From Candidatus Campbellbacteria bacterium GW2011_OD1_34_28 (GTDB lineage: Bacteria > Patescibacteriota > Minisyncoccia > Phycocordibacterales > UBA12079), in NCBI GenBank assembly GCA_001029775.1, contig CP011215.1, forward strand, positions 123,187-187,186: a stretch of DNA of 64,000 bases, written 5' to 3'. A program made the translations under genes and the position numbers. The notes beneath the pieces are model-generated. The model was not told where the DNA came from. It made no database searches and saw only the letters and a list, made by a program, of their open reading frames with translations. Every line of letters starts with the position of its first letter. The first letter of the stretch is position 1. Below are positions 2,102-59,000 of the stretch, one piece after another.

Positions 2102-2815
2102 TTAATTCTTTGATTTTTTATTATTCAAATCAATGCCCCTTCCTGCGTAGTACTTTATAAATTCTGACACTAAAACACAATGGTCTTTTTGAGTATTTTG
2201 ACTCGCAAACCCCGACGGATTATGTAATGTTATAGTATTAGTTTTTTTATCATAGCCAGTAACTAAAACAAGATGTCCACCTCGCTGTGTAGCATCAGCA
2301 GTCTTATACCCTCTTATATTTGGGCTTACAGAAACAATTACAATATCACCATTTGATAATAATTTTTGTAATCCTCTAATTCCAAGTCTAGTATAAATCT
2401 TTGCCGACAAACCATAATTTTCTATCCAATCAACAAACTCCTTATAATGCATGCCGGAAATCTCTTGACCCTCTTTTTTATATACTCCATGATTTTTTGC
2501 ATCTTTTGCAAGAGTTACAATTCCTATTTGTTGTTTTTTAAAATGTTGCAAAGCCATTGAAGTACAAGCCATACCACATATAATTAGCACCCATTCCGCA
2601 TATTCTTCCGGAGATTGTGCTCCTGTATTTTTCCAATTTGGATCATTTGTTTTTTCAACCCCATCTTTAAGAATTTTTTCTGCGTATTCTGAGTGTGCAA
2701 ACTGACTTACATACGGAATTTTATTTTCAACAAATTCTTTTTGTTTAAAGAACAACACACTAATAGCAAGTTGCATATTTTGGATCTCATTTTTTATCTT
2801 TGTTAAAAATTTCAT
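2102..2815 (-). CDS. Peptidase C39-like (papain-fold cysteine peptidase) domain protein.
   Basis: Cys in LIICGMACTSMAL and His in GGHLVLVTGYD at the spacing of a C39-like domain. The start is trimmed to MKFLTK at 2815; the track ORF's first 19 codons read through an AT-rich promoter region. Confidence 0.6.
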   Translation of the reverse strand: MKFLTKIKNEIQNMQLAISVLFFKQKEFVENKIPYVSQFAHSEYAEKILKDGVEKTNDPNWKNTGAQSPEEYAEWVLIICGMACTSMALQHFKKQQIGIVTLAKDAKNHGVYKKEGQEISGMHYKEFVDWIENYGLSAKIYTRLGIRGLQKLLSNGDIVIVSVSPNIRGYKTADATQRGGHLVLVTGYDKKTNTITLHNPSGFASQNTQKDHCVLVSEFIKYYAGRGIDLNNKKSKN

Positions 2816-2865
2816 ATTATCTGATATTATAAGATAGTATATAAGAATAAATTGAAAATGATAAG

Positions 2866-2913
2866 AAAACAAAAATACCGCTTGGGCGGTATTTTTGTTT
2901 TGGTCGTGTGGGC
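2866..2913. repeat. Conserved hairpin block, copy 1 of 2: aaaaataccgc-ttgg-gcggtattttt followed by gttttggtcgtgtggg.
   Basis: Perfect 11-bp stem. Copy 2 at 5613-5660 has two substitutions inside the stem (t>c on one arm and a>g on the other) that are complementary to each other, so the hairpin stays perfect, plus the conserved downstream cttttggtcgtg. Confidence 0.7.
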
Positions 2914-3027: not shown

Positions 3028-3525
3028 TTAATTGATAGCTTCTGGTTCGAGGTTCTCTTTAAGGTCTTCGTATAATTTGAGAGCTCCTTTCTTTAAACCC
3101 TCTATAGCAGGTATGTCCTCACCATCTTCCAAAATTTTTATGTAAACAAACCCTAAGTTTTGTGGTACCTCATCTATATTTACCATTTTAGTCACAAGTA
3201 ATGTTCTCACCTGACTATCATTTTCGTAAAATTTATTTTGTTGCAATATATCTAATATAGTTTTTGCCATATTATCAACATCACGGGTCTTATAATCTTT
3301 TTTTGTAGAAGTAAAAAATTGAATTATTGCTACAAAAACTACTTTTGTTGTAGGAAATAATGAAGGGGGTTTATTTTCTGATAAACCAGCGGTTACTACT
3401 TTTTTAAATGTTTTAAGGCTACTGGATTCTTTTTTTCTAACATATATATCAACACCAGATTTTTTATAAGCTTCCTGTGTAGCTGGAATAATCCCATTAA
3501 TAACAAATTCATGATAATTTTTCAT
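3028..3525 (-). CDS. rusA: RusA-like Holliday junction resolvase (crossover junction endodeoxyribonuclease), typically phage-associated.
   Basis: KTRDVDNMAKTILDIL matches the RusA catalytic Asp motif (RxDxDN...K..LDaL); length 165 aa. Confidence 0.6.
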   Translation of the reverse strand: MKNYHEFVINGIIPATQEAYKKSGVDIYVRKKESSSLKTFKKVVTAGLSENKPPSLFPTTKVVFVAIIQFFTSTKKDYKTRDVDNMAKTILDILQQNKFYENDSQVRTLLVTKMVNIDEVPQNLGFVYIKILEDGEDIPAIEGLKKGALKLYEDLKENLEPEAIN

Positions 3526-4293: not shown

Positions 4294-4965
4294 TTAAACT
4301 ATCTTATATTTGGAACCCTTGAAAGGTATCTTTAAATGTTCAAGTCTGATTTCAAGGGCCTGTCTCGAAAGACCAAATCTTTCTTCAAATTTTGAAAAGT
4401 AATCATCCAAATTAAATTCAATAAGTATAATTCCATCAACTAGACCAATTTCTTGTAGAAAAGATTCGACCTCAATTTTTGGTGCTAATAAAGTTCCTGC
4501 GTATACATTAGCCTGCCACTCTCTTCTAATATTTGCTGTATCAAGCTTCTTTTTATTTTTACAAGGACTAGAATCTTCCCATCCAGTGATTAGTCCGTCT
4601 TCAGTAGAAAAAAGTGGACCGTGCAAAGATATGTGACCAGATTCATGAGCAATAGTAAATGAGATACGTTTTTGATTAGTACAACCCTCACCGACAATAA
4701 TTTGGCGTGATTCTGGACGTAGATATCCAAGAGTTTCTTCTGTTTCTAGTTCTTGCTGAATAATTTCAAAGCTAACATCAAAATCCCAAAGTTCCTTAAC
4801 AAAATTATCTACATCAATTGGAGTTGGAACGGATTTATTATATTTTTCTTGATATTTTTGGCGATATTTTGCGAGATCACTTAAAACTTGAGATTCAATC
4901 TCTTGTTTTGTTAGTTGATATGTATCAGCTAACGGATTCCATTTTTTAGTTACTCGTATTTTCAT
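4294..4965 (-). CDS. ImmA/IrrE family metallopeptidase (DUF955-type, HEXXH).
   Basis: Contains FTIAHESGHISLH (HExxH). Its start overlaps (ATGA) the stop of the upstream XRE-HTH gene, the classic ImmR/ImmA arrangement. Confidence 0.65.
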   Translation of the reverse strand: MKIRVTKKWNPLADTYQLTKQEIESQVLSDLAKYRQKYQEKYNKSVPTPIDVDNFVKELWDFDVSFEIIQQELETEETLGYLRPESRQIIVGEGCTNQKRISFTIAHESGHISLHGPLFSTEDGLITGWEDSSPCKNKKKLDTANIRREWQANVYAGTLLAPKIEVESFLQEIGLVDGIILIEFNLDDYFSKFEERFGLSRQALEIRLEHLKIPFKGSKYKIV

Positions 4966-5303: not shown

Positions 5304-5440
5304 GTAATTATTGTAACAAATAATAGTTACAGATGCAACACTTATAAAGTAAATAAAAAACCTTGTATTGTTAACAAACCAAGGGTTTTTCTTTATTTAT
5401 TATTTTAGGACTATGGGTCTACCGATAACAAGTATCTCCT

Positions 5441-5600
5441 GCGGAGAGGGAGGGATTCGGTCACAAGTCACTAAGTCTTTTGTTCGCCCTTCGCTATCGC
5501 TACGGGCTCCAAAAGCCAAAGTGTTCGCGACCCCGACTCAGAAAGTTGAAAAATTTAATAAATTTTTCCTTTCTTCCGTCTTTCGAATCCCTCCATCGCA
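5441..5600. repeat. 19-bp direct copy of the tRNA-Ser 3' end (gcggagagggagggattcg, compare 6579-6597), followed by a member of the composite repeat family (gtcacaagtcactaagtcttttgttcg...cgaccccgactc...) that ends in an inverted T-arm fragment (cgaatccctccatcgc).
   Basis: Sequence identity to the tRNA-Ser end; family members also at 6667-7080, 16745-17260 and 58205-58929. Confidence 0.7.
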
Positions 5601-5612
5601 GTTAGCGACACA

Positions 5613-5888: not shown

Positions 5889-6479
5889 TTAATCCCGCTC
5901 AAAATCACTAGAAACTTTAACAGGATATTTGAAATCATCTTTTTCTGTCTCGATAACAGTATGAAAGCCAACTTCCCCGTCTTCTTTAACAAACTGCCAG
6001 GAGCCTTCCGGATCGTTTTTGAAACCAGCCGCATCTACAATATAAATAAAACCCTTTTCGACACTAACAAATTTACCATCGGGTAGAGTGTGAATTTCTA
6101 ATTCAAGAGGACTATCTTCACGAATAAAATATGGGTACCCTAGATTAACATTAATATTAGAATAAATTGACCGCATTATTGCAATTGCTGATTTATTCGC
6201 CGCAAAAATTTTCTTGTGATGAGATTTTAATTTGTCATCCTGTATTTCATGAATTGAGCCATGGAGTAAGAAGCCGTGATTTTGGCAAAGATAATCCAGA
6301 AAATGTTCTGTAGTAATACCTTCTTCTTTCAGCTCCTTTAAATTATCAAGTGAAATTTTTCTGACGCCCTCTGTTTGCGTTTCAAAATACTTTTTATAGA
6401 AGCCCTCCATTAATTTTTGCACCTCGATATTTTCGGGAGTCTGTGTCGGCTGTTCTATCTTTGGTTTTATATTTTCCAT
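5889..6479 (-). CDS. Hypothetical protein of 196 aa, lying between the tRNA-Ser att-like duplication and tRNA-Ser.
   Basis: Clean ORF; no recognisable motif. Confidence 0.5.
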   Translation of the reverse strand: MENIKPKIEQPTQTPENIEVQKLMEGFYKKYFETQTEGVRKISLDNLKELKEEGITTEHFLDYLCQNHGFLLHGSIHEIQDDKLKSHHKKIFAANKSAIAIMRSIYSNINVNLGYPYFIREDSPLELEIHTLPDGKFVSVEKGFIYIVDAAGFKNDPEGSWQFVKEDGEVGFHTVIETEKDDFKYPVKVSSDFERD

Positions 6480-6576: not shown

Positions 6577-6666
6577 TGGCGGAGAGGGAGGGATTCGAAC
6601 CCTCGAAGGATATTACTCCTTGCCACGTTAGCAGTGTGGTGGTTTCAGCCTCTCACCCACCTCTCC
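6577..6666 (-). tRNA. tRNA-Ser (anticodon GCU), with long variable arm and encoded CCA.
   Basis: Reverse complement reads GGAGAGGTGGGTGAGAGGCTGAAACCACCACACTGCTAACGTGG...GAGGGTTCGAATCCCTCCCTCTCCGCCA. Acceptor 7-bp GGAGAGG/CCTCTCC, T-arm GAGGG-TTCGAAT-CCCTC, anticodon loop CTGCTAA. Confidence 0.85.
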
Positions 6667-7080
6667 ATGTTTTTTATTCAATTTTTGTCGAAGGATTTTA
6701 GTCACGAGTTACTAATCTTTTTGTTCGTTCTTCGCTACGCTACAAACTCCAAAAATATAAGTACTCTCGACCCCGACTCGACTGTCTCGCTTTGCTCGAC
6801 ATGTCTCCGTCTCTTGATTTCAGACAGAAAGCAAAGAAATTTGCTTTCCTTTCTGCTAAATATTTTTTATAAAAGATAAAAGATATTTAGCAGAACTTAA
6901 ATCAAGCCTTGCCACGTTAGCAGTGTGGTGGTTTCACCCACCTATTTCCTATTCGCCTATCGGCTCATAACGGAAATTTCTTCGCTTCGCTCAGAATCGG
7001 ATTAAAAACAAAGCAGTTTGTTTTTAGTCCTCTCACCCACCCCTGCCTGCCGGCAGGCAGGTCTCCAAAATTCAGTTTTT
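6667..7080. repeat. Non-coding region next to tRNA-Ser. It holds a tRNA-Ser fragment copy (ccttgccacgttagcagtgtggtggtttcac at about 6908-6940), a composite repeat family member (gtcacgagttactaatctttttgttcg...cgaccccgactcg), and the GC palindrome at 7041-7060.
   Basis: Direct sequence comparison with the tRNA gene at 6577-6666 and with 5460-5545. Confidence 0.65.
7041..7060. repeat. GC-rich 20-bp perfect palindrome CCTGCCTGCCGGCAGGCAGG, copy 1. Other copies: 11992-12011, 17026-17045, 56503-56522 and 58306-58325 (all perfect); 61210-61225 (degenerate); and the split variants 8102-8146 and 58789-58831.
   Basis: Exact 20-mer read at each listed position. Confidence 0.8.
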
Positions 7081-11535: not shown

Positions 11536-11608
11536 GCGCACGTAGCTCAGTTGGTAGAGCGCCGAGCTTATACCTCGGTGGTCCCAGGTTCGAGTCCTGG
11601 CGTGCGCA
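11536..11608 (+). tRNA. tRNA-Ile with anticodon UAU (TAT); no encoded CCA.
   Basis: GCGCACG-TA-GCTC-AGTTGGTA-GAGC-G-CCGAG-CTTATAC-CTCGG-TGGTC-CCAGG-TTCGAGT-CCTGG-CGTGCGC-A. All stems are Watson-Crick; the 7-nt anticodon loop is CTTATAC. Confidence 0.8.
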
Positions 11609-11646
11609 CAAAATTAAAAATACTTTTGCTAAAAACCAAAAGTATT

Positions 11647-11973
11647 TTATTTAATCAACTCGAATTTAATAACTTTTACAGGGCTATTTTCATCAACTGG
11701 CCTGTGATAATAACCAGAGTATGTTTCATACATTTCCTTTTCCGATTCAAATTTTTCATGACCGTTCCAATCTTCATCAGTTAATTTTCCAAAAGTAGTT
11801 TCATTTACATCTAGTATCTTTGCTCTTTTGAATTCTTCTCCGGTCTCCCAAACCAAAAAAGAAATTTCGTCCCCCGCTGATAAATCTTTGTCGTCAAATA
11901 AACGCCAAGTAGTATCTTTCGTGTTCGACAAAATCATATCGGCTAATTTTTTTCTAAATTTTAATGTTTTCAT
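11647..11973 (-). CDS. ASCH (PUA-like) domain protein.
   Basis: 108-aa core with an ASCH-like pattern (RLFDDKDLSAGDEISFLVWETGEEF...VKVIKFELI). The start is trimmed because the ORF-track N-terminus MQTCLPAGRAIEFLI is just the translation of the GC palindrome at 11992-12011. Confidence 0.5.
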   Translation of the reverse strand: MKTLKFRKKLADMILSNTKDTTWRLFDDKDLSAGDEISFLVWETGEEFKRAKILDVNETTFGKLTDEDWNGHEKFESEKEMYETYSGYYHRPVDENSPVKVIKFELIK

Positions 11974-12256
11974 AATTAAAAATTCAATCGCCCTGCCTGC
12001 CGGCAGGCAGGTTTGCAAGAACCGGATAAAAAACTTAAACGCTTTTTATCCAACTGAGCTACATGTGCATACACAAAACTTTATCTCAAAACGTCTATTT
12101 AATCAACTCGAATATTTTTACCTTTCTTACTTTTGATTACCGACATGGATTACTTCGTTTCACTCGCAAGGATGGGCGAGCTGTCGGCTTCGTTTTCGTC
12201 CTTACTACTTAATACTTACTACTTATACCTAGTTGGGAAAACAAAAAATAGTTTTG

Positions 12257-16328: not shown

Positions 16329-16713
16329 GGGGGTGATCGGCATAGACATTTAGTCTACTCTTATATGTGCAAAGTCGAAATGAGTAATTCGTAAAAAGGC
16401 TTGTAAAGATAAGTGCAAACTTGTCACAAAAAGCAAAAGCTATGGTTTCACCATATTTCGCTTTTGCTCCAGCATTAGCTTAAGTCTAGGCTGGCGGTCA
16501 ATCTGTTGATTGTTTGGTAAACAGAATGATTGTCATATCACCAAACTAGAAAATAAATCCGCTTCGCTTTATTTTCAAAATCAAGAAGATCGAGATTTTA
16601 AGGTTTTGTTTATTTATTACTTAACTTCTTTAAAAACCAAAAAATATCCTACACTTTGTAGACTCATATAAGAACGCTATTTGCACGCGAGTTCGATTCT
16701 CGCCACTTCCACA
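16329..16713 (+). ncRNA. ssrA: tmRNA (ssrA), candidate. The 5' end is GGGGGTGATCGGCATAGAC. The 3' tRNA-like end is GCGAG-TTCGATT-CTCGC-CACTTCC-A. A possible tag frame is ...GCAAAAGCTATGGTTTCACCATATTTCGCTTTTGCTCCAGCATTAGCTTAA (ends ...FAFAPALA*).
   Basis: Position directly downstream of smpB. The acceptor pairs GGGGGTG/CACTTCC when G-U pairs are allowed. T-arm TTCGATT. Length about 385 nt. The 5' boundary and the tag frame are inferred, not verified. Confidence 0.55.
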
Positions 16714-17340
16714 ATTTAAAAACACTGCCTTTAAAGGCAGTGTTTTTAAATTGTGGAAGTGAGCAAGGCAACTGCTTGCCTTGCGTGCGAGAATCGAAAG
16801 TCGGAACATGTTGAGCGAAGTGAAACAGTGAGACGGGGTCGCGAGCACTTAGGCTTTTGGAGTTCGCAGCGAAGCGGAGAACGAACAAAAGACTTAGTGA
16901 CTTGTGACCGATTCTCGCCTACTCTCTTAAGTCCCAAAGCACCTAGCTTTGGGGCTTTTGATTTTGTAAGAAGTGGCGAGAATCGAAACGAGCGAAGTAT
17001 GGAGGAGCGAAACGACGAACACGAGCCTGCCTGCCGGCAGGCAGGCGAGCGGGGATAAAAAACGTTTAAGTTTTTTATCTGTTTTTTGCGAAGCAAAAAA
17101 TTTTCTTAATTGAGTGAAACGAAATAGAAAATAGGAGGAACAGAGTTCTTAGTGAAGACGAGTTCCGAGCTTGTCGAGGGACGAAGTCTGAACTTAGAAC
17201 TGGAGACCGATTCTCGCCCAAAAGACTTAGTGACTTGTGGCCGATACAGACCACCTCCGCCAGAACATAAAGCAAATTAAAACCGTCTGAACTGTACCCC
17301 AAAAAGTGGGCACTTTCGTGCCCACTTTTTGAGGTACAGT
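16714..17340. repeat. Repeat-rich non-coding block downstream of the tmRNA. It holds a 58-bp perfect palindrome across the tmRNA 3' end (cacttccacaattt...aaattgtggaagtg), inverted members of the composite repeat family, the GC palindrome at 17026-17045, and a terminal terminator (aaaaagtgggcactttcgtgcccacttttt).
   Basis: The reverse complement of 16840-16925 matches gtcacaagtcactaagtcttttgttcg...cgaccccg seen at 5460 and 58475. ggcgagaatcg copies the tmRNA T-arm. Confidence 0.65.
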
Positions 17341-35504: not shown

Positions 35505-38500
35505 CTAAAACTCTATTACCCGTGAATCACAATCTGCCGGACAGCTCAAAAAGTTTTCGTTTGCATCGCAAGTTGTGTTTCCACAACAATCCGCAAAACA
35601 ACTTCCTATCTCACCTGGAGAACAAATATCGTCTCCACAACCACTAGTCAAATGTTCGGCCGTACAAGTGTCAGTAGACAAAGTCCCCTGACAATTCCAA
35701 GTAGCACTATTTCCGGCAGTAGGGAAAGCGGGAGTAAGATTTTTTATTCCTCCCAAACACCAACCATTGGATGGGTCTTGCCAATTTGTTTCTTCCAACA
35801 AATAATCTCTTTCATTTACTCCGCAATCCCCGTCTCCGGTTGGAATAGCTGAACGAGTTGCTGAACAACTTGCAGATCCTAGGCCCATTTGACACGCCCA
35901 ATTTGAAACACCACCTCTAGCTGGGAAAGACACGGGGTTTGGATTTGGATTAAATGCTGTAGTCTCTATTAAACACCAATTTCCAGCAGGCCATGACAAA
36001 GTCTCGTAAGAAAATGCTCTTGCCAAAGTTCCACAGTCAACATCACAGGTTCCTGGCATACATCCGCCCGGACCTTGGCGGTTAGCTGTACAAGTAACAG
36101 AGTCTCCTCCGTTCACACAAGACCACGAAGCTGTAGAATTCATTACAGGGAAACTTGTCGGCGTACCACTTCCGGTTCCAAACTGACACCAAGTGCTTCC
36201 TGTTGGCCATGCGGTTTCTGTTGAAAGATAAGTTCCTGCTCGATAAGTGTCTCTAGTTCCGCAACCAACAGTTGGAGGAGTATCTCTATAAGCAGAACAA
36301 TTTGCTATTGATTCATAAAAATTACATTTCCACGTTACCATCTCTCCCTGATCGGGGAATTTCGCTGATGGAGAAAAAGTTTCTTCCGTTCCGTTGTCAC
36401 ACCATGTGCTTCCAACGGGATAATCTGTTGTTGAATAAGTATATGTTCCGTCTTTAGTTCCACACTCACCTTCTCCAACAGGAAGTGCCGCACGAGAAGC
36501 CGAACAACTTGCGTTCGTTGCTCCGGTACCAGAACCATTACAACTCCAAGAAACAGTTTGTCCATAATTAGGAAATAACGGAGAAGCAGAATTTGTTCCC
36601 GTCGTACAATAAGCAGATCCTGCTGGCCATGCTGTTGTCGTTATAGGATAAGGAGGAGCAACAGTCGTCGAATAATTGTCTGATCTATTTCCGCAAGATC
36701 CATTTAAAGGAAGTCTGGAAGCAGAACAACTTGCATTTGTTCCGCCGTTTATTCCAACACATGTCCAGGAAACACTGGCCCCCAAACCTGGAAAAGCGGG
36801 GCTAGTGCTGTTTGTTCCAAGTGAACAATATGCAGTAGATGCTGGCCAAGCGGTTGTCGTCGCAGGATAAGGGGGAGCAACAGTCGTCGAATAATTGTCT
36901 GATCTGTTTCCGCAAGTAGCATTTGTTGTTTGTAATACTTTTAAATATTTGACCAGAGAACTATTTGTAGCTGCCATTTGATAACAAGGACAAAGAGTTC
37001 CGTTTGAAGCAGCTACTTGTTTTGCAAAATCATTAGGTATTGCTACAAAAGAAGTGGTATGAGTACACGCCAGACAAACATATGATCCAGAAGAGAGTGT
37101 CTGAAAATCATAGCTGTCGCCGTAATACCTTGCAAACAAACCAGAATAAGTCACAGTATGATTTCCGACAGTCCTTGGTCCGAAATTTTTAGTTGTATAA
37201 GCGGTTGACCTCAAAACCCACAAGTGAATAGCAACAGCGGCATTTGGGTTTTGGGTATTTATAATAATATATTGCCAATTATTTGCATCTATCTTTACCG
37301 CACCCTGCATATAACTGATGCTGTTATTACAGACATTCCATGTCAGTTTCATAGAGGCTTGTACATCATCTATAGAATAATAAACATAACGACTGTCAGC
37401 ACTATCATAAGAACGATATCCTGTCATATCATAGACAATCGTAACTGTATCAGTAAGAAAAGAACCCCCAGGATTCCACGAAACTGTAGTTGCTTCTACG
37501 CTATTTCCGCCAAAAAAGATTCCGAACCCTAATAAAAAAACTGCCATAAAAAATTTTACGCCAATTTTTTTTAAATAAATAGCAATTCCAGCAAGGACAA
37601 TAACACCAATTAAAACATAGATTGCCCAGCCAAAAGATTTGTCTTCTTTTGTCTCAACATAAAAAATATTTTCATCCAAAACATTTCCTTCTGCATTCTT
37701 AACCTGAGCCTTGATTACAGGATTTTTACAATCCCTCAAAGAAACAATTTCCATATTTAACACACCACTATCGGCTTTGATTTCTTTTTCTCCACACAAT
37801 CTATCAAAAACACCTGTTGTGATAGAAACAAAAGCAAACAACTCTTGTTGTTGTTGATCTCGGACTCTGGCATCCAAAAAGTTTTGGGCACTTCCTGACA
37901 GAACAAAAGTAATATTTATTTTTTCGTCTTCTTTGTATGAATCCTTGTCCAAACTTACATTCTGAACAGTTGCTGATTCTCCTCTTATAACAAAGTGCAG
38001 CGGAATCATATTAGATAAATTATTACCTAATTTATTTTGCAAAATTAAATCACCGTCGTATGCCTGAGGTTTTTCGGGCAAAGGAACATCCAATTCCAAT
38101 GTTTTTGTTTCTCCTGCAAGTAATTCAACTTCTGGAAACTTTTTTTCTTCAACTGACTGTCCAAAAGAACTCCTTTCTCTAATATTTATAACAGGAATAA
38201 AAGAAATTTTATTTTGAGAACTATTAACAATATCACATTCCATAACAGGACTTTCTGTCGATCTATCTATATCAATTCCCTGATTTACAGCGAACAATTC
38301 TTCTCCGATCTTCAATTTACAACTAAAAGGATTAATCAAAAGTCCTCCATCTCCATCAATATTTACCATGCCAAAAGAAACAAATCCATAATCAAGACCT
38401 TTTTCGTTTCCAGAGGATACAATTATTTCAAACTCTCCTTTCAAATTTGAAGGTGCTGTATATTTAATCTCTTTTACAATATCTTCCCCCGTATTTAGGC

Positions 38501-38831
38501 TAAATACATCCTCATAATATTGTTTATGAACTGGAAATCCATTTTTATCAACCAATTCAACAACATATTTTATCTGAGGCTGAACATCACCATGATTTAC
38601 AATATTAAAAGACAGGCCAAAATCATTTTTGTCTTGTCTTAAAATTTTTCCATCATACAAACTAATGTCAGCCAAAATGACAAATTGTCCACTTGAAACA
38701 TCTATTCCACTCTCTATCATCTGGTCAAGAACAAAGTCCGGAATTTCTACTGGTAATTCTTCTGCGTTAGTGACGAAAACAGAGGAAAAAAACATTAACA
38801 CGAACAAACAAAAAGAGACTATTTTTTTCAT
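35505..38831 (-). CDS. Giant surface protein P1 (1108 aa). Layout: signal peptide, an N-terminal domain of about 400 aa, a tight pair of TM helices (WAIYVLIGVIVLAGIAIYL-KKIGVK-FFMAVFLLGFGIFFGG), at least six copies of a roughly 60-aa four-Cys repeat, and a conserved C-terminal module CG.TTCDANENFLSCPADCDSRVIEF.
   Basis: Read from the ORF translation. The repeat consensus is CG.R...Y...ET.WP.GS.WC..GT....FP..G....W.C......C.A.R. Confidence 0.7.
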   Translation of the reverse strand: MKKIVSFCLFVLMFFSSVFVTNAEELPVEIPDFVLDQMIESGIDVSSGQFVILADISLYDGKILRQDKNDFGLSFNIVNHGDVQPQIKYVVELVDKNGFPVHKQYYEDVFSLNTGEDIVKEIKYTAPSNLKGEFEIIVSSGNEKGLDYGFVSFGMVNIDGDGGLLINPFSCKLKIGEELFAVNQGIDIDRSTESPVMECDIVNSSQNKISFIPVINIRERSSFGQSVEEKKFPEVELLAGETKTLELDVPLPEKPQAYDGDLILQNKLGNNLSNMIPLHFVIRGESATVQNVSLDKDSYKEDEKINITFVLSGSAQNFLDARVRDQQQQELFAFVSITTGVFDRLCGEKEIKADSGVLNMEIVSLRDCKNPVIKAQVKNAEGNVLDENIFYVETKEDKSFGWAIYVLIGVIVLAGIAIYLKKIGVKFFMAVFLLGFGIFFGGNSVEATTVSWNPGGSFLTDTVTIVYDMTGYRSYDSADSRYVYYSIDDVQASMKLTWNVCNNSISYMQGAVKIDANNWQYIIINTQNPNAAVAIHLWVLRSTAYTTKNFGPRTVGNHTVTYSGLFARYYGDSYDFQTLSSGSYVCLACTHTTSFVAIPNDFAKQVAASNGTLCPCYQMAATNSSLVKYLKVLQTTNATCGNRSDNYSTTVAPPYPATTTAWPASTAYCSLGTNSTSPAFPGLGASVSWTCVGINGGTNASCSASRLPLNGSCGNRSDNYSTTVAPPYPITTTAWPAGSAYCTTGTNSASPLFPNYGQTVSWSCNGSGTGATNASCSASRAALPVGEGECGTKDGTYTYSTTDYPVGSTWCDNGTEETFSPSAKFPDQGEMVTWKCNFYESIANCSAYRDTPPTVGCGTRDTYRAGTYLSTETAWPTGSTWCQFGTGSGTPTSFPVMNSTASWSCVNGGDSVTCTANRQGPGGCMPGTCDVDCGTLARAFSYETLSWPAGNWCLIETTAFNPNPNPVSFPARGGVSNWACQMGLGSASCSATRSAIPTGDGDCGVNERDYLLEETNWQDPSNGWCLGGIKNLTPAFPTAGNSATWNCQGTLSTDTCTAEHLTSGCGDDICSPGEIGSCFADCCGNTTCDANENFLSCPADCDSRVIEF

Positions 38832-38962: not shown

Positions 38963-41791
38963 TTAAAATTCAATAATTTTTGATCCACAATCCAAAGGAC
39001 AATTCAAGAAATTCTCGTTTGAATTACATGCATTGTCTCCACAGAAAGAATTTTCATTATCTATTGGTTCTCCACAATCTTGAGGACAAAGACTACCCTC
39101 TCCTTGTTCACAAACATTGTTTTCACATTCTGGCTCACAATCTTGCGGACAATTATTAGCATTTTCCCCAGATCCACAAATATAATCTGTTCCACATCCT
39201 TCTGGACAATTTTCAGAACATCCAAGACGACAATCTGTTCCACAATCTCCAGCATTTTCAGTCATACAATTATTACTACATCCATCTCCACTGTTTGTGT
39301 TTCCGTCATCACACTGTTCTTGTCCTTCCTTTACCCCATTTCCACAGACAGCATTTCCTGCTCCTCCTTCAATAGCACAAACACTGCTACATCCGTCCCC
39401 ACTATTTGTGTTTCCATCATCACATTCTTCACCTGTATTTAATGTTCCGTTTCCACAATTTACGCTGACATTTGTCCTAATTGCCGAACAACTCGCGATT
39501 GTTCCCCCATTTCCCGCACATCTCCAATTTGCTGTTTGGCCGGGCAAAGGAAAGGCTGGTGCTGTAAATACCGTTTCCAAAGAATTAGATCCTGTTGAAT
39601 TTATAGGAGTTCCAACCTTACACCACGCACTGCCTGAAGGCCAAGTAGTTTCTGTTGCCAAATAAGTTCCTTTTCTCTGAGCATTTCTTATTCCACAGTC
39701 GCCGTTGGTTACGATAGGTACACTAGGTACATTAGCTCTAGTTGCAGAACAAGTATCTCCCAATCCGGTTCCCTGAGGAATTGGCAAACAACTCCACCAA
39801 ACTGTCTGTCCTGGGTTTGGGAAACTTGTCGGAGTTCCTGAAGGAGTCCCCAATTTACACCAAGCACTGCCAGATGGCCAAGCGGTTTCTGTTGCCAAAT
39901 AATTTCCTTCTCTCTGAGCATTTCTTGCTCCGCAATCCCCGGGCAAGTTACAACTTACTGAACGACTAAGTGTTCCTATCAAAACGTCTATTAGACACAT
40001 CGATCCATTTGCGACAGGTAATCCCTGACACATATCTCCGATTCCAGGTCTTGGACAACAGTGACATCCGTTTTGGGTAAATTTTGCTGTTGCAGAAATA
40101 ACAGTCGGACTAGTTGAGATTGTTTTTACAACTCTGTGTACTCTGGTTGGATTTGCTTCATGTCCATAATCAATAATACTGATACCACCAGCATTGTCAG
40201 TTATCTTTGCTTGCAAACCATTTACACAAGCCCCACAAACCACTCTTAGCGTAACATCCATTATTGCAGTTCCTCCACAAGTCGGAGTAACAGGTTCTCT
40301 AGACACCCAAAATGTTGTTGTGGGAATACCTCCTCCACACATACAAAGAGCTTCTGTCTTTTGATAATCACCAAAGAACAAAATTCCAGGAAGAAATACG
40401 ATCATAATCATCACTGCTAAATCAATTTTCCCTTTTCTTTTTAAATAAACAAAAATTCCTATCAAGACAATTAACAATCCAATCAATATATACATGTCAT
40501 AACTTTTTACTCCATACTTTTTGAAATATTTGATATCCATACTGTAACTATCCAAAACATCCCCTGTCTTTGTATCTTTGATCACCAGATTCATTTCTTT
40601 TAATTTTGTTCTTTGAGAAACAGCGTCATCAAAAATAATTTTTCCTCCATATTCATCCAAAGAAACTTCTTTTGAAAAAGTTTGATCAAATCCCCAACTT
40701 CCAGTCAAATGCAATTCTGCCGTAACAGAATTTCCCTTTCCGTTGATTGAAACAACCTCAGCAGAAATTTCTAGCTTTTCACCATTCTTGTAATAATTTC
40801 TTCCTGAATCAACACTCATAATACGAGCAATCAACTGACCATATTCAACCAACCATCTCAAATTTCTTGTAAACAAATATTCATCTTCATCATTAATCAA
40901 AGAAAATTTTATTTCAAAAGGACCTCCTTTTTTCAAAACCTCATTGCCAGCAGTATCAATTTCTACAAAAAGAGAATCTTGCCCATCAACAACCTTTCTT
41001 GAAAGATCACCTTTTGAAGAAACAATCAGTTTCTTTTCCCCCAAAGTGTCATATATATCCATTTCGTATTTCATCACCTTTGAAGATTTTACATAAGCAT
41101 CCACTCCAGCATTTTCACCTAATGGAATCAAAATAAGAGGTTTGTCTTCTGGTGTAGTAGAAAGTCCCACCATAGGTGCTGTTTTTCCATAAGTGGTTGT
41201 ATAGAAATACATTTTTATTCCGGAAAGTCTTCCTCCTGTTCCGTCTAGTAGAATAGGTTCTTCTATGAAATCAACATTTTGAAATTTTAAATTTTTGTCA
41301 TTAACAAAAACTTGAACAAAATAATTTCCTGTCTCAATATTTTTAGGAACATCAATAGACAAGATTTTTGTTTGAACGGCATTAGGAGCAAGTTTTCCCA
41401 AGTTTTTTACTTCTTGATATGTGTGTTCTGTCGTTGAAAAAATATATCCTTCTGTAGCCAATGCTTCTCCTCTTCTTATTTCAACTACATATTCCAGATC
41501 ATCCAAAAAATTGGCTGTATTATTTTTGATATCTGTTTGAACACTCAATTTTCTGTTCGCTTGATCAAAAGAAATATCTTTTATTTTCAATTCTACTTCG
41601 GGAATATAAGGAACTGTTTCCCCTGCATAGTTTACAGTAATACCTTCTACATCATCGCCAAAACTATTTTCTTCGGCGACTGCATCCACAACGGGAGAAT
41701 CTCCTTCCACAGCAAAAAGCTGTGTCCCAAAACTGACCATTCCTGAAAGGAAAATGGCCAACATCAAAAACTTAACAAATGTTGATTTCAT
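38963..41791 (-). CDS. Giant surface protein P2 (942 aa), a paralog of P1 with the same layout: signal peptide, N-terminal domain, TM pair (YILIGLLIVLIGIFVYL-KRKGKIDL-AVMIMIVFLPGILFFG), four-Cys repeats, Myxococcus-type cysteine-rich repeats (CGNG...GEECDDGNTNSGDGCS..C, twice), and the C-terminal module CGDNACNSNENFLNCPLDCGSKIIEF.
   Basis: Read from the ORF translation. The C-terminal 25 aa are nearly identical to those of P1. Confidence 0.7.
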   Translation of the reverse strand: MKSTFVKFLMLAIFLSGMVSFGTQLFAVEGDSPVVDAVAEENSFGDDVEGITVNYAGETVPYIPEVELKIKDISFDQANRKLSVQTDIKNNTANFLDDLEYVVEIRRGEALATEGYIFSTTEHTYQEVKNLGKLAPNAVQTKILSIDVPKNIETGNYFVQVFVNDKNLKFQNVDFIEEPILLDGTGGRLSGIKMYFYTTTYGKTAPMVGLSTTPEDKPLILIPLGENAGVDAYVKSSKVMKYEMDIYDTLGEKKLIVSSKGDLSRKVVDGQDSLFVEIDTAGNEVLKKGGPFEIKFSLINDEDEYLFTRNLRWLVEYGQLIARIMSVDSGRNYYKNGEKLEISAEVVSINGKGNSVTAELHLTGSWGFDQTFSKEVSLDEYGGKIIFDDAVSQRTKLKEMNLVIKDTKTGDVLDSYSMDIKYFKKYGVKSYDMYILIGLLIVLIGIFVYLKRKGKIDLAVMIMIVFLPGILFFGDYQKTEALCMCGGGIPTTTFWVSREPVTPTCGGTAIMDVTLRVVCGACVNGLQAKITDNAGGISIIDYGHEANPTRVHRVVKTISTSPTVISATAKFTQNGCHCCPRPGIGDMCQGLPVANGSMCLIDVLIGTLSRSVSCNLPGDCGARNAQREGNYLATETAWPSGSAWCKLGTPSGTPTSFPNPGQTVWWSCLPIPQGTGLGDTCSATRANVPSVPIVTNGDCGIRNAQRKGTYLATETTWPSGSAWCKVGTPINSTGSNSLETVFTAPAFPLPGQTANWRCAGNGGTIASCSAIRTNVSVNCGNGTLNTGEECDDGNTNSGDGCSSVCAIEGGAGNAVCGNGVKEGQEQCDDGNTNSGDGCSNNCMTENAGDCGTDCRLGCSENCPEGCGTDYICGSGENANNCPQDCEPECENNVCEQGEGSLCPQDCGEPIDNENSFCGDNACNSNENFLNCPLDCGSKIIEF

Positions 41792-56283: not shown

Positions 56284-56639
56284 TAAATAAAGAAAAGAGC
56301 GACCTGCCAAGCAGGTCGCTCTTTTCTTTATTTATTAGCGAATTATTAATTTTAAATTATAAATTATAAATTACTTTAAATTACACCCAGATGACGAAAA
56401 AGTTCTTTAAATTTCTAATTATTTCAAAATTAGATACAGAACGAGGAGCAAGAACAAAATGGAAGAAGGCATATTTTTAATACGACGACTGATGTTTTGT
56501 GACCTGCCTGCCGGCAGGCAGGATTGCGACAAAGTTATGTGCTAATTTTGAGATAATTATCACCTATTGCACAAAAAATGGCTTAATATATAATAGTTAG
56601 TATAAATGGTTTTATTAGTAATTAATAAAAAATAAAAAA

Positions 56640-58204: not shown

Positions 58205-58929
58205 TTTTCTTTGTGCGGATAGGACAGAAGAGAATCGGCGCCAGTTCTAAATATTTTGTTCGTCACTCGACAAGCTCGTGACTTCAAAATATTAAGAACT
58301 CGCTGCCTCGCTCGCCTGCCTGCCGGCAGGCAGGCTCGTGTTCGTCGGGCAAAGCCCTCCTCCATACTTCACTCGTTTCGATTCTCCCTATTCGCTACAA
58401 AAACCAAAGACCCAAAAGCTGCCGCTTTTGGGTCTAGGTTTTTGTGCGGATAGAATAGATGAGAATCGGTCACGAATCACTAAGTCTTTTGTTCACCCTT
58501 CACTTCGTTACGGGTTCCAAAAGTCTAAGTGTTCTCGACCCCGGCTCGCCTTCTCGCTTCGCTCGATATGGCTCCGCCTTTCGATTCTCCACGAAAAGCA
58601 AGCAGTTGCTTTTCTCTATCCGAACAGCACAAAGTGAAAACCACCCTATTCGGGTGGTTCACTTTGGCTGTGCGGATAGGATAGATGAGAATCGGTCTCC
58701 AGTTCTAAGTAAAAATTTCGTTTTCGCTTCGCTTCAACTCATTTTTACTAAGAACTCGCGACCCCGCTCGCTCAGATTTTTTCTCCACCCTGCCTCTTTT
58801 CTGAAAGAAAAGCAACGACACGGTAGGCAGGTTCGTTACGAAAAAATATACTTCGCTCGTTTCGATTCTCCCTATTCGCTACAAAAATATATTACGAAAA
58901 AGCTAGTCGCTTTTTCTCCATTATTTTTG
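58205..58929. repeat. Three tandem units of about 230-260 bp of the composite repeat family. Each begins with a copy of the tRNA-Gly 3' end (ttgtgcggatagga.agaRgagaatcgg at 58211, 58443, 58669) and ends with an inverted copy (cgattctcc...ctatccg...caca). Units carry the GC palindrome (58306-58325) or its split variant (58789-58831).
   Basis: Direct comparison with the tRNA-Gly gene at 58930-59000 (tgtgcggatagggagaatcgaac). Unit interiors match 5460-5545 and 16840-16925 (gtcacgaatcactaagtcttttgttc...cgaccccg) and 17195-17255 (gagaatcggtctccagttctaagt). Confidence 0.75.
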
Positions 58930-59000
58930 TGCGGATAGGGAGAATCGAACTCCCGACTCATCCTTGGCAAGGACGTATTTTACCACTAAACCATATCCGC
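58930..59000 (-). tRNA. tRNA-Gly (anticodon GCC); no encoded CCA.
   Basis: Reverse complement reads GCGGATATGGTTTAGTGGTAAAATACGTCCTTGCCAAGGATGAGTCGGGAGTTCGATTCTCCCTATCCGCA. Acceptor GCGGATA/TATCCGC, anticodon loop TTGCCAA, T-arm GGGAG-TTCGATT-CTCCC. Confidence 0.8.

Follow-up and report, generated by a model that had tools for sequence, protein, structure and literature searches.

Mobile elements that integrate into tRNA and tmRNA genes include tyrosine-integrase islands and the tycheposon arrays of Prochlorococcus. Small repeats with which such elements can be compared are the MITEs, REP/BIME, Correia and RUP elements and the PATEs derived from IS200/IS605. Folded single-strand attachment sites are known as the attC sites of integrons and the attP hairpins of CTXphi/IMEX, with repeats of 6-7 nt. 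Among RNAs, tRNA is mimicked by the tRNA-like domain of tmRNA, the bacterial Y RNA YrlA and viral tRNA-like structures. Group I introns also occur in tmRNA T loops, and class C group II introns insert after terminators. In Patescibacteria, group I introns occur in tRNAs, and no group II intron was detected in the 95 complete genomes surveyed (PMC13011429). The units described here are non-coding, about 200 nt long, and consist of a folded core between an inverted and a direct copy of the tail of the tRNA behind which they lie. No matching RNA family or mobile element was present in the catalogues searched, and no description of units of such build was found in the full-text literature. To our knowledge, there is likewise no matching transposase for tRNA-tail units.

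Three such units (G1, 58212-58399; G2, 58443-58631; G3, 58668-58883) are stacked on the minus strand behind tRNA-Gly(GCC) in the window, which is the whole 64,000-nt stretch of DNA that was analysed (Table 1). A sequence-only reading had described a three-unit array whose ends copy the tRNA 3' end in direct and inverted sense, and a repeat finder confirmed this with exact coordinates for the parts. Each unit consists of a left arm reverse-complementary to the tRNA 3' end, a core of 110-170 nt, and a right arm that copies the tRNA directly from T-loop C56 onwards. The repeat TGTGCGGATAG.ATAGATGAGAATCGG was found in three copies at 58212, 58443 and 58669 (spacing 231 and 226 nt), and a fourth, partial copy at 58928 is the tRNA-Gly 3' end itself. 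Inverted arms of 26 nt at 58377-58402 and 58861-58886 are 85% complementary to 58924-58949. The 230-nt period was missed by Tandem Repeats Finder because the units are too diverged. Homology to tRNA-Gly begins inside the T loop at C56, where CGATTCTC is preceded by GTT in the tRNA and by GAC in the units. All three right arms contain an 8-nt insertion without counterpart in tRNA-Gly.

Table 1. Coordinates of the genes, units, unit parts and hairpins in the window.
Feature	Positions	Strand	Evidence or remark
tRNA-Gly(GCC), intact	58929-59000	-	ARAGORN; Rfam tRNA 69 bits; part from C56 is X, copied in units
Hairpin H0, GAAAAAGC-GACTA-GCTTTTTC	58896-58916	.	Between tRNA-Gly and G3 left arm
G3 left arm, reverse complement of tRNA 3' end (TGTAGCGAATAGGGAGAATCGAA)	58861-58883	-	Inverted repeat I2
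G3 core, subtype B (...GGGGTCGCGAGTTCTTAG...ACTTAGAACTGGAGAC)	58695-58860	-	Covariance model R1, 38.9 bits
G3 right arm, tRNA from C56 with 8-nt insertion (CGATTCTC-ATCTATCC-TATCCGCACAG)	58668-58694	-	Direct repeat D1
Hairpin H1, between G3 and G2	58635-58663	.	Sequence reading
G2 left arm	58580-58631	-	Acceptor-strand and T-stem/loop complements split by hairpin 58593-58614
G2 core, subtype A	58469-58579	-	R1 131.1 bits, E 2.6e-43; fold z-score -5.2
G2 right arm (CGATTCTCATCTATTCTATCCGCACA)	58443-58468	-	D1
Hairpin H2, between G2 and G1	58407-58436	.	12-bp stem with T runs; inverted repeat I6
G1 left arm, identical to G3 left arm	58377-58399	-	Inverted repeat I1
G1 core, subtype B, with palindrome GCCTGCCTGCCGGCAGGCAGGC (58314-58335)	58238-58376	-	R1 31.9 bits
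G1 right arm (CGATTCTCTTCTGTCCTATCCGCACA), distal end of array	58212-58237	-	D1
tmRNA gene, 3' end CGATTCTCGCCACTTCCACAA (X of T1-T3)	16329-16714	+	Gene call; Rfam
Unit T1	16750-16926	+	R1 123.1 bits
T1 left arm with CUGC hairpin	16750-16796	+	
T1 core, subtype A	16797-16908	+	
T1 right arm	16909-16926	+	
Unit T2	16966-17218	+	No R1 match at E<=1
T2 left arm	16966-16985	+	
T2 core, subtype B	16986-17207	+	
T2 right arm, truncated	17208-17218	+	
T3 remnant	17219-17263	+	5'-truncated subtype A core (CAAAAGACTTAGTGACTTGTGGC) and older tmRNA-like right arm (CGATACAGACCACCTCCGCCAG)
tRNA-Ser(GCT), intact	6577-6666	-	Gene call; Rfam
Unit S1	5440-5611	-	R1 116.5 bits; right arm matches tRNA-Ser 3' end
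S1 left arm	5582-5611	-	
S1 core, subtype A	5460-5581	-	
S1 right arm	5440-5459	-	
Unit S2 core	6679-6829	-	R1 99.9 bits; upstream of tRNA-Ser

The short hairpins that had been seen between the units are all present (H0 to H2), and their three sequences are unrelated to one another. H0 is the apex of a palindrome built from the tRNA-Gly 3' end and the G3 left arm, H1 joins the right arm of G3 and the left arm of G2 into a single long palindrome, and H2 is terminator-like on both strands. The unit interiors, said to be non-identical members of one family, proved to be of two core subtypes, A (G2) and B (G1 and G3). The subtype A consensus of G2 comprises AGNCGGAG, helix P2, CGAGN'C, GGGGTCG.GA..ACTTAG, helix P3 and CTTAGTGAYTYGTGAC. 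The hairpin that splits the G2 left arm has 9 bp and a CUGC loop, and many loci have a hairpin at this same position.

The family had also been reported beside the tmRNA and tRNA-Ser, and units were found at both (16750-17263, and 5440-5611 with 6679-6829, respectively). The core motif gave four gapped-pattern matches in the window as against none in 100 shuffles, and the matches of covariance model R1 in the window scored 32-131 bits. At the tmRNA, the T2 core holds two extra inserted hairpins; it is of the same subtype as the G1 core at tRNA-Gly, and the G1 palindrome GCCTGCCTGCCGGCAGGCAGGC recurs in it at the same place. S1 lies 978 nt from tRNA-Ser, and a 196-aa ORF (5889-6479) intervenes. 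S2 is embedded in a broken duplicate of the tRNA-Ser 5' half (6905-7065), and its right arm is a copy of the variable-arm region instead of the T loop. In addition, a tRNA-Ile-like 5' fragment was seen near 12040-12075.

The module shared by all units (core I, ~110-130 nt) extends from 5'-A(A/G)NCG(G/C)AG to GTGAC-3' and forms a junction of covarying helices, of which P2 and P3 fold on the tRNA-sense strand. Altogether 93.2% of cells were paired, compared with 77.0% after shuffling (none of 500 shuffles reached 93.2%) and 32-39% in a slid alignment control. P2 and P3 were paired in 95-99%, with many double compensatory changes. Double changes were seen at 22 pairs in all, one G.U is invariant, and core pair variants were G.U in 29 cases versus A.C in three. 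Covariance-model scores were 90-130 bits in sense and 20-33 bits in antisense. The core has covarying helices and strand asymmetry, as structured non-coding RNAs generically do. In the window as well as in 8 loci, the Rfam gathering threshold was passed by tRNA, tmRNA and rRNA only. With the cut-off relaxed to E<=10 or E<=1, the array and the 8 loci gave miRNA-like and group-II matches at chance level only, such as a group-II fragment of 13.6 bits (E 4.4). Hammerhead, HDV and twister, which were suggested by the three-way junction and the boundary after GAC, were rejected since their invariant nucleotides are missing and no Rfam match was obtained. Large insertions and truncation are tolerated by the cores (T2, T3 and locus L082); the inserts are mini-palindromes in T2 and G1, and a frameshifted endonuclease-like gene in L082.

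Beyond the window, 82 stretches, belonging to about 45 Patescibacteria MAGs of many studies, contained the core in a pattern scan, and the covariance model identified 131 units in total. Ninety-eight of these lie no more than 150 nt 3' of a tRNA or tmRNA on the same strand, none lies beside one on the opposite strand, and 13 come after another unit. Copies at many non-tRNA sites had been named as the observation that would overturn the tRNA association; instead, 110 of the 131 are directly linked to a tRNA or an array unit. The remainder occur at contig ends, behind undetected tRNAs or behind ~1 kb of cargo, all with tRNA-like right arms. A unit is present at 94 of 143 sampled tRNAs in genomes of only 0.4-0.6 Mb, and the tRNAs concerned span 19 amino-acid classes, plus tmRNA. 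Copies per tRNA vary from zero to at least three, and one third of the tRNAs have no unit. One unit (L004) is located inside an rRNA transcription unit and must therefore be transcribed there. Presence or absence differs at the orthologous clpB-tRNA-Tyr locus; among the loci compared, no insertion event and no empty/filled pair within one species was seen. A metagenome scan for an orthologous empty site, made with the neighbouring 229-aa protein, returned only three loci (60-66% identity), none with tRNA-Gly synteny. Viral contigs, phage records and plasmids gave no matches, and thus no evidence of a phage or plasmid origin.

Every locus has the layout tRNA(1-55) - S - rc(S) - I - S', where S comprises the tRNA tail from T-loop C56, the trailer and the leading half of the terminator hairpin. 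Of 62 single units, about 45 have their junction at C56, and a second class joins at the last 3 nt. The direct repeat measures 17 to ~100 nt, with its 5' limit fixed at C56 and its 3' limit variable. In young-looking cases it extends over the tail, the trailer and the terminator (57-58 nt for L034 and L050, ~75 for L047), and in L061 a ~100-nt repeat flanks two different core subtypes. As the copies include trailer and terminator, their template was not mature tRNA. Retrotransposition, whether tRNA-primed or target-primed, is unlikely, given also that the 95 complete Patescibacteria genomes yielded no group II intron (PMC13011429) and that no reverse transcriptase was seen in the window ORFs or loci examined. 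From C56 to the left-arm end the sequence forms one hairpin (median 85 nt, -59 kcal/mol, 94% of X paired), which is flush at C56 in 41 of 53 units. The inverted-tail score is 23 at tRNAs with a unit and 12 at those without, compared with 11 in the control. Unit-less tRNAs thus have no inverted tail copy, and the left arm belongs to the element.

The arms always match the local tRNA, yet near-identical cores are found at unrelated tRNAs, which indicates that the core is a mobile or homogenised module and that the arms are made from the target. Core identities reach 90% for Leu(caa)/Gly(gcc), 88% for Asp/Ala and 93% for tmRNA/Met-array. In 69 of 73 cases the closest relative of a core accompanies a tRNA for another amino acid (42 of these in another genome), and core similarity begins directly past the left arm and ends at GTGAC. 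Pairing between the two arms is seen in 81% of cells. The left arm stays in step with the tRNA whereas the right arm decays (60 versus 21 positions), with no compensation between the arms, and many right arms decay before reaching the tRNA end. L032 and L078 have a common derived right-arm start (CGCTTCTC), so that part of the arm may travel with the core. Where both cores of a pair belong to one genome, gene conversion inside that genome could give the appearance of mobility.

The claim that no ORF of any size is present did not hold, as ORFs of 99 and 159 aa lie on the opposite strand of the array (58338-58637 and 58459-58938), the longer of which is called as a gene in the ENA assembly. Both are very probably spurious, because they have no Pfam match and cross the tRNA. 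The absence of an integrase, by comparison, stood for the 24 window ORFs scanned and for the precomputed Pfam matches of the 20.7-kb stretch around the array. The scan (20 of the ORFs being at least 200 aa, and 35505-38831 [1108 aa], 38963-41791 [942 aa] and most ORFs below 200 aa being excluded) detected no recombinase, transposase or reverse transcriptase, and the Pfam matches of the called genes in the 20.7-kb stretch contained no integrase, transposase or reverse transcriptase family. All-against-all clustering of 1106 ORFs from the loci revealed no recurrent transposase-like family. No recurrent integrase, transposase or reverse transcriptase was found in 83 sources (82 loci and the window), and no autonomous relative in ~640 kb of loci. 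TnpB, IscB and IS200/605 ends were absent from the window ORFs scanned and from the loci, with no Rfam omegaRNA/HEARO match, and IntI from the window ORFs scanned and the 83 sources. The ORFs between tRNAs and distal units were considered as an element-encoded enzyme and rejected, since they are unrelated (GNAT, NYN and unknowns). The sole serine recombinase encountered (L089) adjoins a tRNA-Tyr that carries no unit, and prophage-like genes (RusA and ImmA-like) occur near the tRNA-Ser unit. A family of LAGLIDADG-fold proteins is encoded immediately upstream of tRNA genes.

The array can be read as three copies of a non-autonomous insertional element whose insertion renews the tRNA tail and pushes the old one aside, and we give this reading an even chance of being correct. 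In Paceibacteria (Patescibacteria/CPR), the element family would colonise tRNA and tmRNA genes on their 3' side, with core I as its only transferable part. Insertion would begin with a break or nick in the tRNA gene between T55 and C56, or in a minority of cases at the last 3 nt. A fresh tail S would be laid down, which would keep the tRNA intact, and synthesis would then fold back at the terminator palindrome and reverse-copy S into the left arm. Subsequently, the core would be copied in and joined to the old tail, which would become the right arm and decay. We infer this fold-back mechanism from the layout. Stacking with the newest unit proximal to the tRNA may result from repeated events at one tRNA, or from tandem duplication and re-integration. 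Because the inter-unit hairpins are unrelated while the 8-nt insertion is common to all right arms, serial copying of the current tail is insufficient, and tandem duplication or gene conversion must be added. The machinery may act in trans and recognise the core by its covarying fold, in the form of single-stranded DNA or of RNA, with the LAGLIDADG-fold proteins as a candidate lead. One of two options in the sequence-only reading, a non-autonomous hairpin-ended family, comes close to this; its tRNA-mimicking ends are, however, copied from each target, and only the core is common. Truncated units, nested insertions, unrelated cargo ORFs and presence/absence differences are signs of junk-like turnover. 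A selected RNA function would account equally well for the strong covariation, the invariant nucleotides and the fact that units and tRNAs are strictly co-oriented.

Such a function is the basis of the rival explanation that the units are a host-selected structured RNA, one gene copy being partnered to each tRNA or tmRNA and transcribed with or just after it, which is possible but on balance doubtful. The 5' arm of this RNA would be complementary to the 3' strand of the tRNA and to its trailer, and the 3' arm would mimic the same strand; the arms would close an acceptor and T stem-like helix (a 'top-half' mimic), or the 5' arm would sequester the tRNA tail. The RNA might take part in tRNA 3'-end processing or in quality control of the tRNA, act as a decoy or be a substrate of tRNA enzymes, with spread by tRNA gene duplication and homogenisation by gene conversion. 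The paired P2 and P3 helices with their double compensatory changes, invariant G.U and excess of G.U over A.C, the higher sense scores and the strict co-orientation (98 versus 0) all favour it, as do the presence of units at about two thirds of sampled tRNAs despite such small genomes, the L004 unit inside an rRNA transcription unit, and a left arm that stays complementary to the tRNA. Furthermore, the conserved CUGC hairpin sits exactly at the D/anticodon-arm branch point of an acceptor/T helix. However, copy number per tRNA is variable down to zero, insertions and truncation of the core are tolerated, and core kinship across genomes is independent of tRNA identity. If tRNA and unit were co-transcribed, folding of the tRNA would have to contend with a perfect 85-nt hairpin that takes in the tRNA tail, and a terminator-like hairpin separates tRNA and unit. 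The right arm is not maintained, and its uncompensated decay weakens the P1 helix (left arm with right arm) as a selected top-half mimic. A bolder reading, which we consider unlikely, is a self-programming tRNA-directed system in which the units are RNA genes that combine a scaffold with antisense and sense guides from the insertion site. With the help of scaffold and guides, a nuclease acting in trans, perhaps the LAGLIDADG-fold proteins, would recognise or cleave the T loop in tRNA genes or in tRNAs themselves. The core might in this way home to any tRNA gene, or the spare tail might serve in the surveillance or repair of tRNA 3' ends.

The other option of the sequence-only reading was that the units are serial att scars, left as attR copies by an integrase-encoding island or prophage that repeatedly entered the tRNA-Gly T loop and was then deleted. 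What stood of this is that direct tRNA 3'-end repeats begin in the T loop and are stacked downstream of the tRNA; according to Williams in 2002, the T loop is reportedly a known integrase sublocation. The RusA and ImmA-like genes and the serine recombinase of L089 also speak for it. An integrase has one att core, whereas here one unit core occurs at 19 tRNA classes and the tmRNA with locally matching arms, and each scar would need to have retained the same covarying 110-nt sequence and an inverted att copy. Given also the lack of an integrase in the ORFs scanned and the 83 sources, and of matches in viral contigs, phages and plasmids, classical att scars are contradicted and were rejected as very improbable. 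Decayed tRNA pseudogenes, or local segmental tRNA gene duplications with insertions, would account for tRNA-derived arms and for the tRNA-Ser 5' half and tRNA-Ile-like fragment in the window. This is more improbable still, as the left arm corresponds to the 3' half in genuine reverse-complement form and not to a decayed 5' half, the non-palindromic T loop TTCGATT appearing as AATCGAA; the units are therefore not the ordinary pseudogenes without inverted ends that had been named as a refuting outcome. Moreover, D-arm and anticodon-arm sequence is absent from the units, the core has no similarity to tRNA and is common to unrelated tRNAs, and the Rfam tRNA calls are true genes only. Lastly, chimeric repeats could have been made by the assembler or by binning. 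One JGI contig (L003) stops inside unit G1, at a spot where assemblers struggle. The chance of an artefact is nonetheless negligible, as the array is 100% identical over a 1.3-kb region in the independent NCBI and ENA assemblies, and the family recurs with covariation in the MAGs of many studies.

If the insertional-element reading or its structured-RNA rival is true, most tRNA genes in the most streamlined genomes known from bacteria would be followed by a structured element absent from the catalogues searched. It would be either a new mobile DNA whose ends are written by its target or a new tRNA-partnered RNA, both of which are open categories. The S - rc(S) - I - S layout would be a clean natural case of fold-back or template-switch insertion that spares an essential gene, which makes the mechanism testable. 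A strand-specific and T-loop-precise targeting principle valid for any tRNA gene would also follow, and the self-programming system, if true, would represent a new RNA-guided or RNA-templated process on tRNA genes in CPR bacteria. Even a merely decaying repeat family would be a useful marker of Paceibacteria genome dynamics. In practice, the units break CPR MAG assemblies beside tRNAs, spawn spurious ORF calls and confuse the annotation of tRNAs and att sites.

Compared with RNAs that mimic tRNA, the units have 5' and 3' ends that can pair as acceptor and T stem with a large insert between them; in contrast, other sequence takes the place of the T loop, decay of the 3' arm is frequent and no CCA is encoded. 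Mobile introns share the tRNA and tmRNA targets, including the T loop or a post-terminator position; they too have a structured RNA core, and a homing-endonuclease-like gene can be housed in one of their peripheral helices, as in L082 here. The core is, however, far smaller than any group I or II intron and has no Rfam intron match, and the tRNA is uninterrupted, so there is nothing to splice. As in the TnpB omega/reRNA and IscB omegaRNA, a structured scaffold abuts ~20 nt of flanking target, which serves as the homing guide in those systems. Here the flank is copied on both sides in opposite senses, and no tnpB or iscB was found in the window ORFs scanned or in the loci.

MITEs and PATEs resemble the units in being short, non-coding, multi-copy, hairpin-forming and non-autonomous, with subfamilies, decay and nested insertions. 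The units differ in that their inverted ends copy the target and are not encoded by the element, only the core being common among loci, and in that target class (tRNA tails) and orientation are strict. In place of a short target duplication of fixed length or a target tetranucleotide, they have a repeat of 17 to ~100 nt. Integrating islands likewise occupy the 3' side of tRNA and tmRNA genes, are bounded by a direct repeat from the T loop or 3' end, regenerate the tRNA and displace the old tail; they also stack in tandem and sometimes enclose small cargo genes. The direct tRNA 3' repeat that bounds an island is present in the units, whereas specificity for a single tRNA is lacking and no integrase was found in the window ORFs scanned or the 83 sources. 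Unlike islands, the units have a conserved covarying core of 110-130 nt, an att-like inverted copy that is always present, and two arms that both derive from the local target. In attC and IMEX attP sites, inverted and direct target copies fold one strand into a target-mimicking duplex in a strand-specific manner, and arrays grow at one platform with the newest insertion proximal. The units agree in having inverted sites that can fold on one strand (81% arm pairing; 85-nt hairpin), but the junction of GTT with CGAAT does not fit the core GTTRRRY. Their platform is the T loop of any tRNA and not attI or dif, their repeats are 17-100 nt long, and a conserved three-helix fold lies between the arms in place of a variable spacer.

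Three tandem units lie downstream of tRNA-Gly on the tRNA strand (G3 nearest the tRNA, then G2 and G1), as proposed in the sequence-only reading. A repeat finder recovered TGTGCGGATAG.ATAGATGAGAATCGG three times in register, at spacings of 231 and 226 nt, with the 3' end of tRNA-Gly itself as a fourth copy, and inverted arms of 26 nt that are 85% complementary. In the sense of the tRNA, a unit consists of a left arm (the tRNA 3' end in reverse complement), a central core, and a right arm, which is a direct copy of the tRNA from T-loop C56 (GTT followed by CGATTCTC in the tRNA, GAC followed by CGATTCTC in the unit). An 8-nt insertion absent from the tRNA is common to the three right arms, and the cores are of two subtypes (A in G2, B in G1 and G3). 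The fold of G2 has an energy of -73.3 kcal/mol (z = -5.2) and is 9 kcal/mol more stable than that of its complement. ARAGORN and Rfam identified four RNA genes in the window, and the relatives previously suspected at two of them are borne out: the same architecture occurs downstream of the tmRNA (two units and a truncated third, with arms matching the tmRNA tail CGATTCTCGCC) and around tRNA-Ser (arms CGAATCCCTCCCTCTCCGC). The array had been described as free of ORFs, which does not hold, given that two mechanical ORFs (99 and 159 aa) run across it on the opposite strand. The longer ORF, which covers G2, G3 and the beginning of tRNA-Gly, is annotated as a gene in an ENA assembly (L001 9139-9618); it is almost certainly a spurious call that the repeats brought about. 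Across the array region, identity is 100% both to NCBI GCA_003489565.1 (DNLU01000002.1) and to an ENA assembly; a JGI contig breaks within G1.

Coordinates of features in the window and at other loci (L-numbers)
Feature	Position	Strand	Remark
tRNA-Ser(GCT)	6577-6666	-	ARAGORN, Rfam
tRNA-Ile(TAT)	11536-11609	+	ARAGORN, Rfam
tmRNA	16329-16714	+	ARAGORN, Rfam
tRNA-Gly(GCC)	58929-59000	-	ARAGORN, Rfam
Hairpins separating tRNA-Gly and the three units	58896-58916, 58635-58663, 58407-58436		
159-aa ORF	58459-58938	+	
CCTGCCTGCCGGCAGGCAGG copies	7041-7062, 11991-12012, 17025-17046, 56502-56523, 58314-58335		
AACUGCUU-apex hairpins	58593-58614, 16762-16784		
Broken tRNA-Ser 5' half	6905-7065	-	
tRNA-Ile-like 5' fragment	12040-12075	-	
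GGATAAAAAAC..TTTTTATCC hairpin in tmRNA unit T2	17060-17085		
ASCH-domain ORF	11647-12018	-	123 aa
ATTTAATCAACTCGAAT copies	near 11650 and 12100		
Mobile-element-like segment	2102-5303		just beyond S1 right arm
C39-like peptidase	2102-2872		beyond S1 right arm
RusA resolvase	3028-3525		beyond S1 right arm
ImmA/IrrE-like M78 peptidase	4294-4965		beyond S1 right arm
16S rRNA, tRNA-Ile(GAT), unit	L004 69-2166		
Frameshifted LAGLIDADG-fold gene	L082 4702-5400		
Split tRNA-Met-like gene	L082 5390-5800		
Nested tRNA-Thr(GGT)	L092/L093 2700-2960		
Large serine recombinase	L089/L090 2528-4162	-	544 aa

A gapped core pattern, matched four times in the window and never in shuffles, retrieved 82 stretches from GTDB representative genomes. 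Their labels are nearly all Patescibacteria, Paceibacteria or Parcubacteria lineages (e.g., Vogel-, Wolfe- and Nomurabacteria); many MAGs with the generic label 'Saccharibacteria' are also present, and one is labelled Gammaproteobacteria. No match was found in IMG/VR, phage records or plasmids, and a full-text literature search found no account of such units, the nearest paper being PMC13011429. Across these 82 loci and the window (83 sources, about 640 kb), a covariance model of the unit (R1) finds 131 units.

The 5'-3' order is invariable in the 62 single units: tRNA, A-rich trailer, GC hairpin, U-rich stretch and left arm, then a core consisting of A(A/G)NCG(G/C)AG, the variable hairpin P2, CGAGN'C, GGGGTCG(C/A)GA(G/A)(C/T)ACTTAG, hairpin P3 and CTTAGT(G/A)A(C/T)T(C/T)GTGAC, and lastly the right arm. 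The right arm starts at C56, 19 nt before the ARAGORN end, in about 45 of the 62; in a second class (several tRNA-Glu units and single Val, Arg-tct, Leu-taa and Ala-tgc units) it begins at the last 3 nt (GTGAC, then CACA), and the left arm is correspondingly short. As DNA or RNA, the segment from C56 to the left-arm end forms a single hairpin (median 85 nt, -59 kcal/mol), with a median of 94% of the tail base-paired; in 41 of 53 units the partner of C56 is the final base of the left arm. The arrangement as a whole reads S - rc(S) - I - S, where S is the tRNA tail from C56 plus the trailer and the first half of the terminator hairpin, rc(S) its reverse complement and I the core. Many left arms also carry a 9-bp CUGC-loop hairpin at the exact point where the complements of the acceptor strand and the T stem meet. 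This hairpin, with a conserved AACUGCUU apex and covarying stems, was seen at many loci, among them the window, L010, L011, L016, L035 and L043, either at that boundary or directly 3' of a tRNA.

The tRNA-sense strand of the core has a conserved fold whose paired positions covary. RNAalifold predicted P2 and P3 from an alignment of 73 units (A1), with double compensatory changes at 15 of 25 pairs. With the arm helix P1 added, 93.2% of cells are paired, compared with 77.0% after shuffling (0/500 shuffles reach 93.2%) and 32-39% with partners slid; pairing in P2 and P3 reaches 95-99%. The N and N' positions of GNC and GN'C covary, using four types of pair; one G.U is unchanged in 73/73 units, and G.U variants (29) far outnumber A.C. 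At the same loci, R1 hits score 90-131 bits in the sense orientation and only 20-33 bits in reverse. Rfam has no family matching the core, whether in the window or in eight other loci.

Units are tightly linked to tRNA genes. A same-strand tRNA or tmRNA lies within 150 nt on the 5' side of 98 of the 131 units, a further 13 sit behind another unit, and an opposite-strand tRNA was beside none of the 131 on either side. The remainder are at contig ends, behind subtype B units, behind tRNAs missed by ARAGORN, or separated from the tRNA by 690-1600 nt containing small, unrelated ORFs (GNAT, NYN, unknowns). All units of this remainder have a tRNA-like right arm. Among tRNAs and tmRNAs with enough downstream sequence, 94 of 143 carry a unit, representing 19 amino-acid classes; many unit-less tRNAs are internal members of tRNA clusters without a terminator hairpin. 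The median score of the inverted tail copy is 23 at tRNAs with a unit, 12 at those without and 11 in the control. Because unit-less tRNAs have no inverted tail copy, the left arm is part of the element rather than a general tRNA-terminator feature. The unit at L004 is within an rRNA transcription unit: it comes after 16S rRNA and tRNA-Ile(GAT), and the 3 kb that remain contain no 23S.

For 69 of 73 units, the closest core relative in A1 belongs to a tRNA with another amino-acid identity; in 42 of those 69 it comes from a different genome. Examples are tRNA-Leu(caa)/tRNA-Gly(gcc) (90%), Asp/Ala (88%), Leu/Glu in one genome (90%) and tmRNA/Met-array (93%), and G1 and T2 have a common subtype B core including the CCTGCCTGCCGGCAGGCAGG palindrome. 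Pairwise core similarity begins directly after the left arm and stops at GTGAC(C/T), both arms following the local tRNA. The left arm tracks the tRNA far better than the right (right-only divergence at 60 positions, left-only at 21), and this position-by-position comparison revealed no compensation between the arms. In young-looking loci, direct repeats including trailer and terminator measure 57-58 nt (L034, L050) or ~75 nt (L047); L061 has a near-identical ~100-nt repeat (tail, hairpin, left arm) ahead of two different core subtypes.

The units are real, far more general than one locus and unexplained by any family tested. Serial att-site scars, as earlier suggested, are excluded: classical scars would need one integrase and one tRNA, whereas the units occur at many tRNAs and no integrase was found in the scanned window ORFs or loci. 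On this last point the sequence-only reading holds for the scanned ORFs of the window, which are mostly housekeeping (RecG, FtsH, ComEC, RecJ, PGK, TIM, pilus genes, NusA, trigger factor). Pseudogenes of tRNAs are excluded because the left arm is the reverse complement of the 3' half, TTCGATT appearing as AATCGAA. Judged from comparative anatomy, there is an even chance that the units are a non-autonomous insertional element, in which the core alone would be transferable and the arms would be written from the target. A break between T55 and C56 (near the 3' end in the minority class) would be followed by copying that regenerates the tail, leaving the tRNA intact. Synthesis would turn back at the terminator palindrome to give the left arm, and the core would be copied next and rejoined to the old tail, which would become the right arm and decay. 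Arrays could arise by repetition at one tRNA, or by tandem duplication or re-integration; one of the latter two would be needed at tRNA-Gly because of the insertion common to the right arms and the identity of the left arms of G1 and G3. Group II introns were undetected in 95 complete Patescibacteria genomes (PMC13011429), and therefore a retroelement mechanism is disfavoured.

The main rival, a host-selected RNA partnered with each tRNA, is less likely. Core covariation, strand asymmetry, strict co-orientation with the tRNA, high prevalence in tiny genomes and the position of the L004 unit all support such an RNA, but the right arm decays, copy number is variable, insertions and truncations are tolerated, and core relatedness ignores tRNA identity. 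The element and host-RNA readings are compatible: a mobile element may have been domesticated.

Several other features were observed. CCTGCCTGCCGGCAGGCAGG, a 20-22 nt perfect palindrome with five window copies (0 expected by chance), is a separate mini-palindrome repeat family; two copies are in unit cores, one is in a broken tRNA-Ser copy and two are elsewhere, and a variant occurs in L072 and L039. The broken copy is an extra tRNA-Ser 5' half upstream of the intact gene, split by the palindrome and by inserted hairpins. A GGATAAAAAAC..TTTTTATCC hairpin, of a family also found inside T2, disrupts a tRNA-Ile-like 5' fragment. Directly downstream of tRNA-Ile(TAT), an ASCH-domain ORF is flanked by two copies of ATTTAATCAACTCGAAT, which contains ACTCGAA, the complement of the T loop of that tRNA; this segment may represent a cargo-like insertion that has no recognisable core. 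Genes typical of prophage or mobile-element remnants are located just past the right arm of the tRNA-Ser unit S1. In L082, a ~330-nt insert splits the anticodon loop of a tRNA-Met-like gene and is probably a group I intron of the kind described at position 35/36 of Patescibacteria tRNAs (PMC13011429). A tRNA-Thr(GGT) is apparently nested between two halves of another tRNA-like sequence in L092/L093. Immediately downstream of tRNA-Tyr in L089/L090, on the opposite strand, is a large serine recombinase (Resolvase, Recombinase and Zn_ribbon_recom domains), called in one of two identical assemblies.

ORF clustering across loci revealed no transposase-like family. It did identify a ~205-aa protein family that has an HTH at its N terminus and an invariant YWGEG; this family is a lead on the putative machinery of the units and might cut tRNA genes. 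In every case seen, the gene ends 0-12 nt from a tRNA gene (tRNA-Tyr after clpB at six loci, tRNA-Ile, tRNA-Gly, tRNA-Trp); the window has no copy. The HTH is the sole part recognised by Pfam, NCBIfam and PDB sequence searches, and among 577 relatives all those with a source-named organism are from Patescibacteria. The orthologous clpB-tRNA-Tyr locus has no unit in L047, L089 and L091; in L094 a degenerate unit, below the reach of R1, is visible by eye. A frameshifted copy of this LAGLIDADG-fold gene lies in helix P2 of a third unit behind tRNA-Asp in L082, an arrangement reminiscent of mobile introns, which have endonuclease genes lodged within them.
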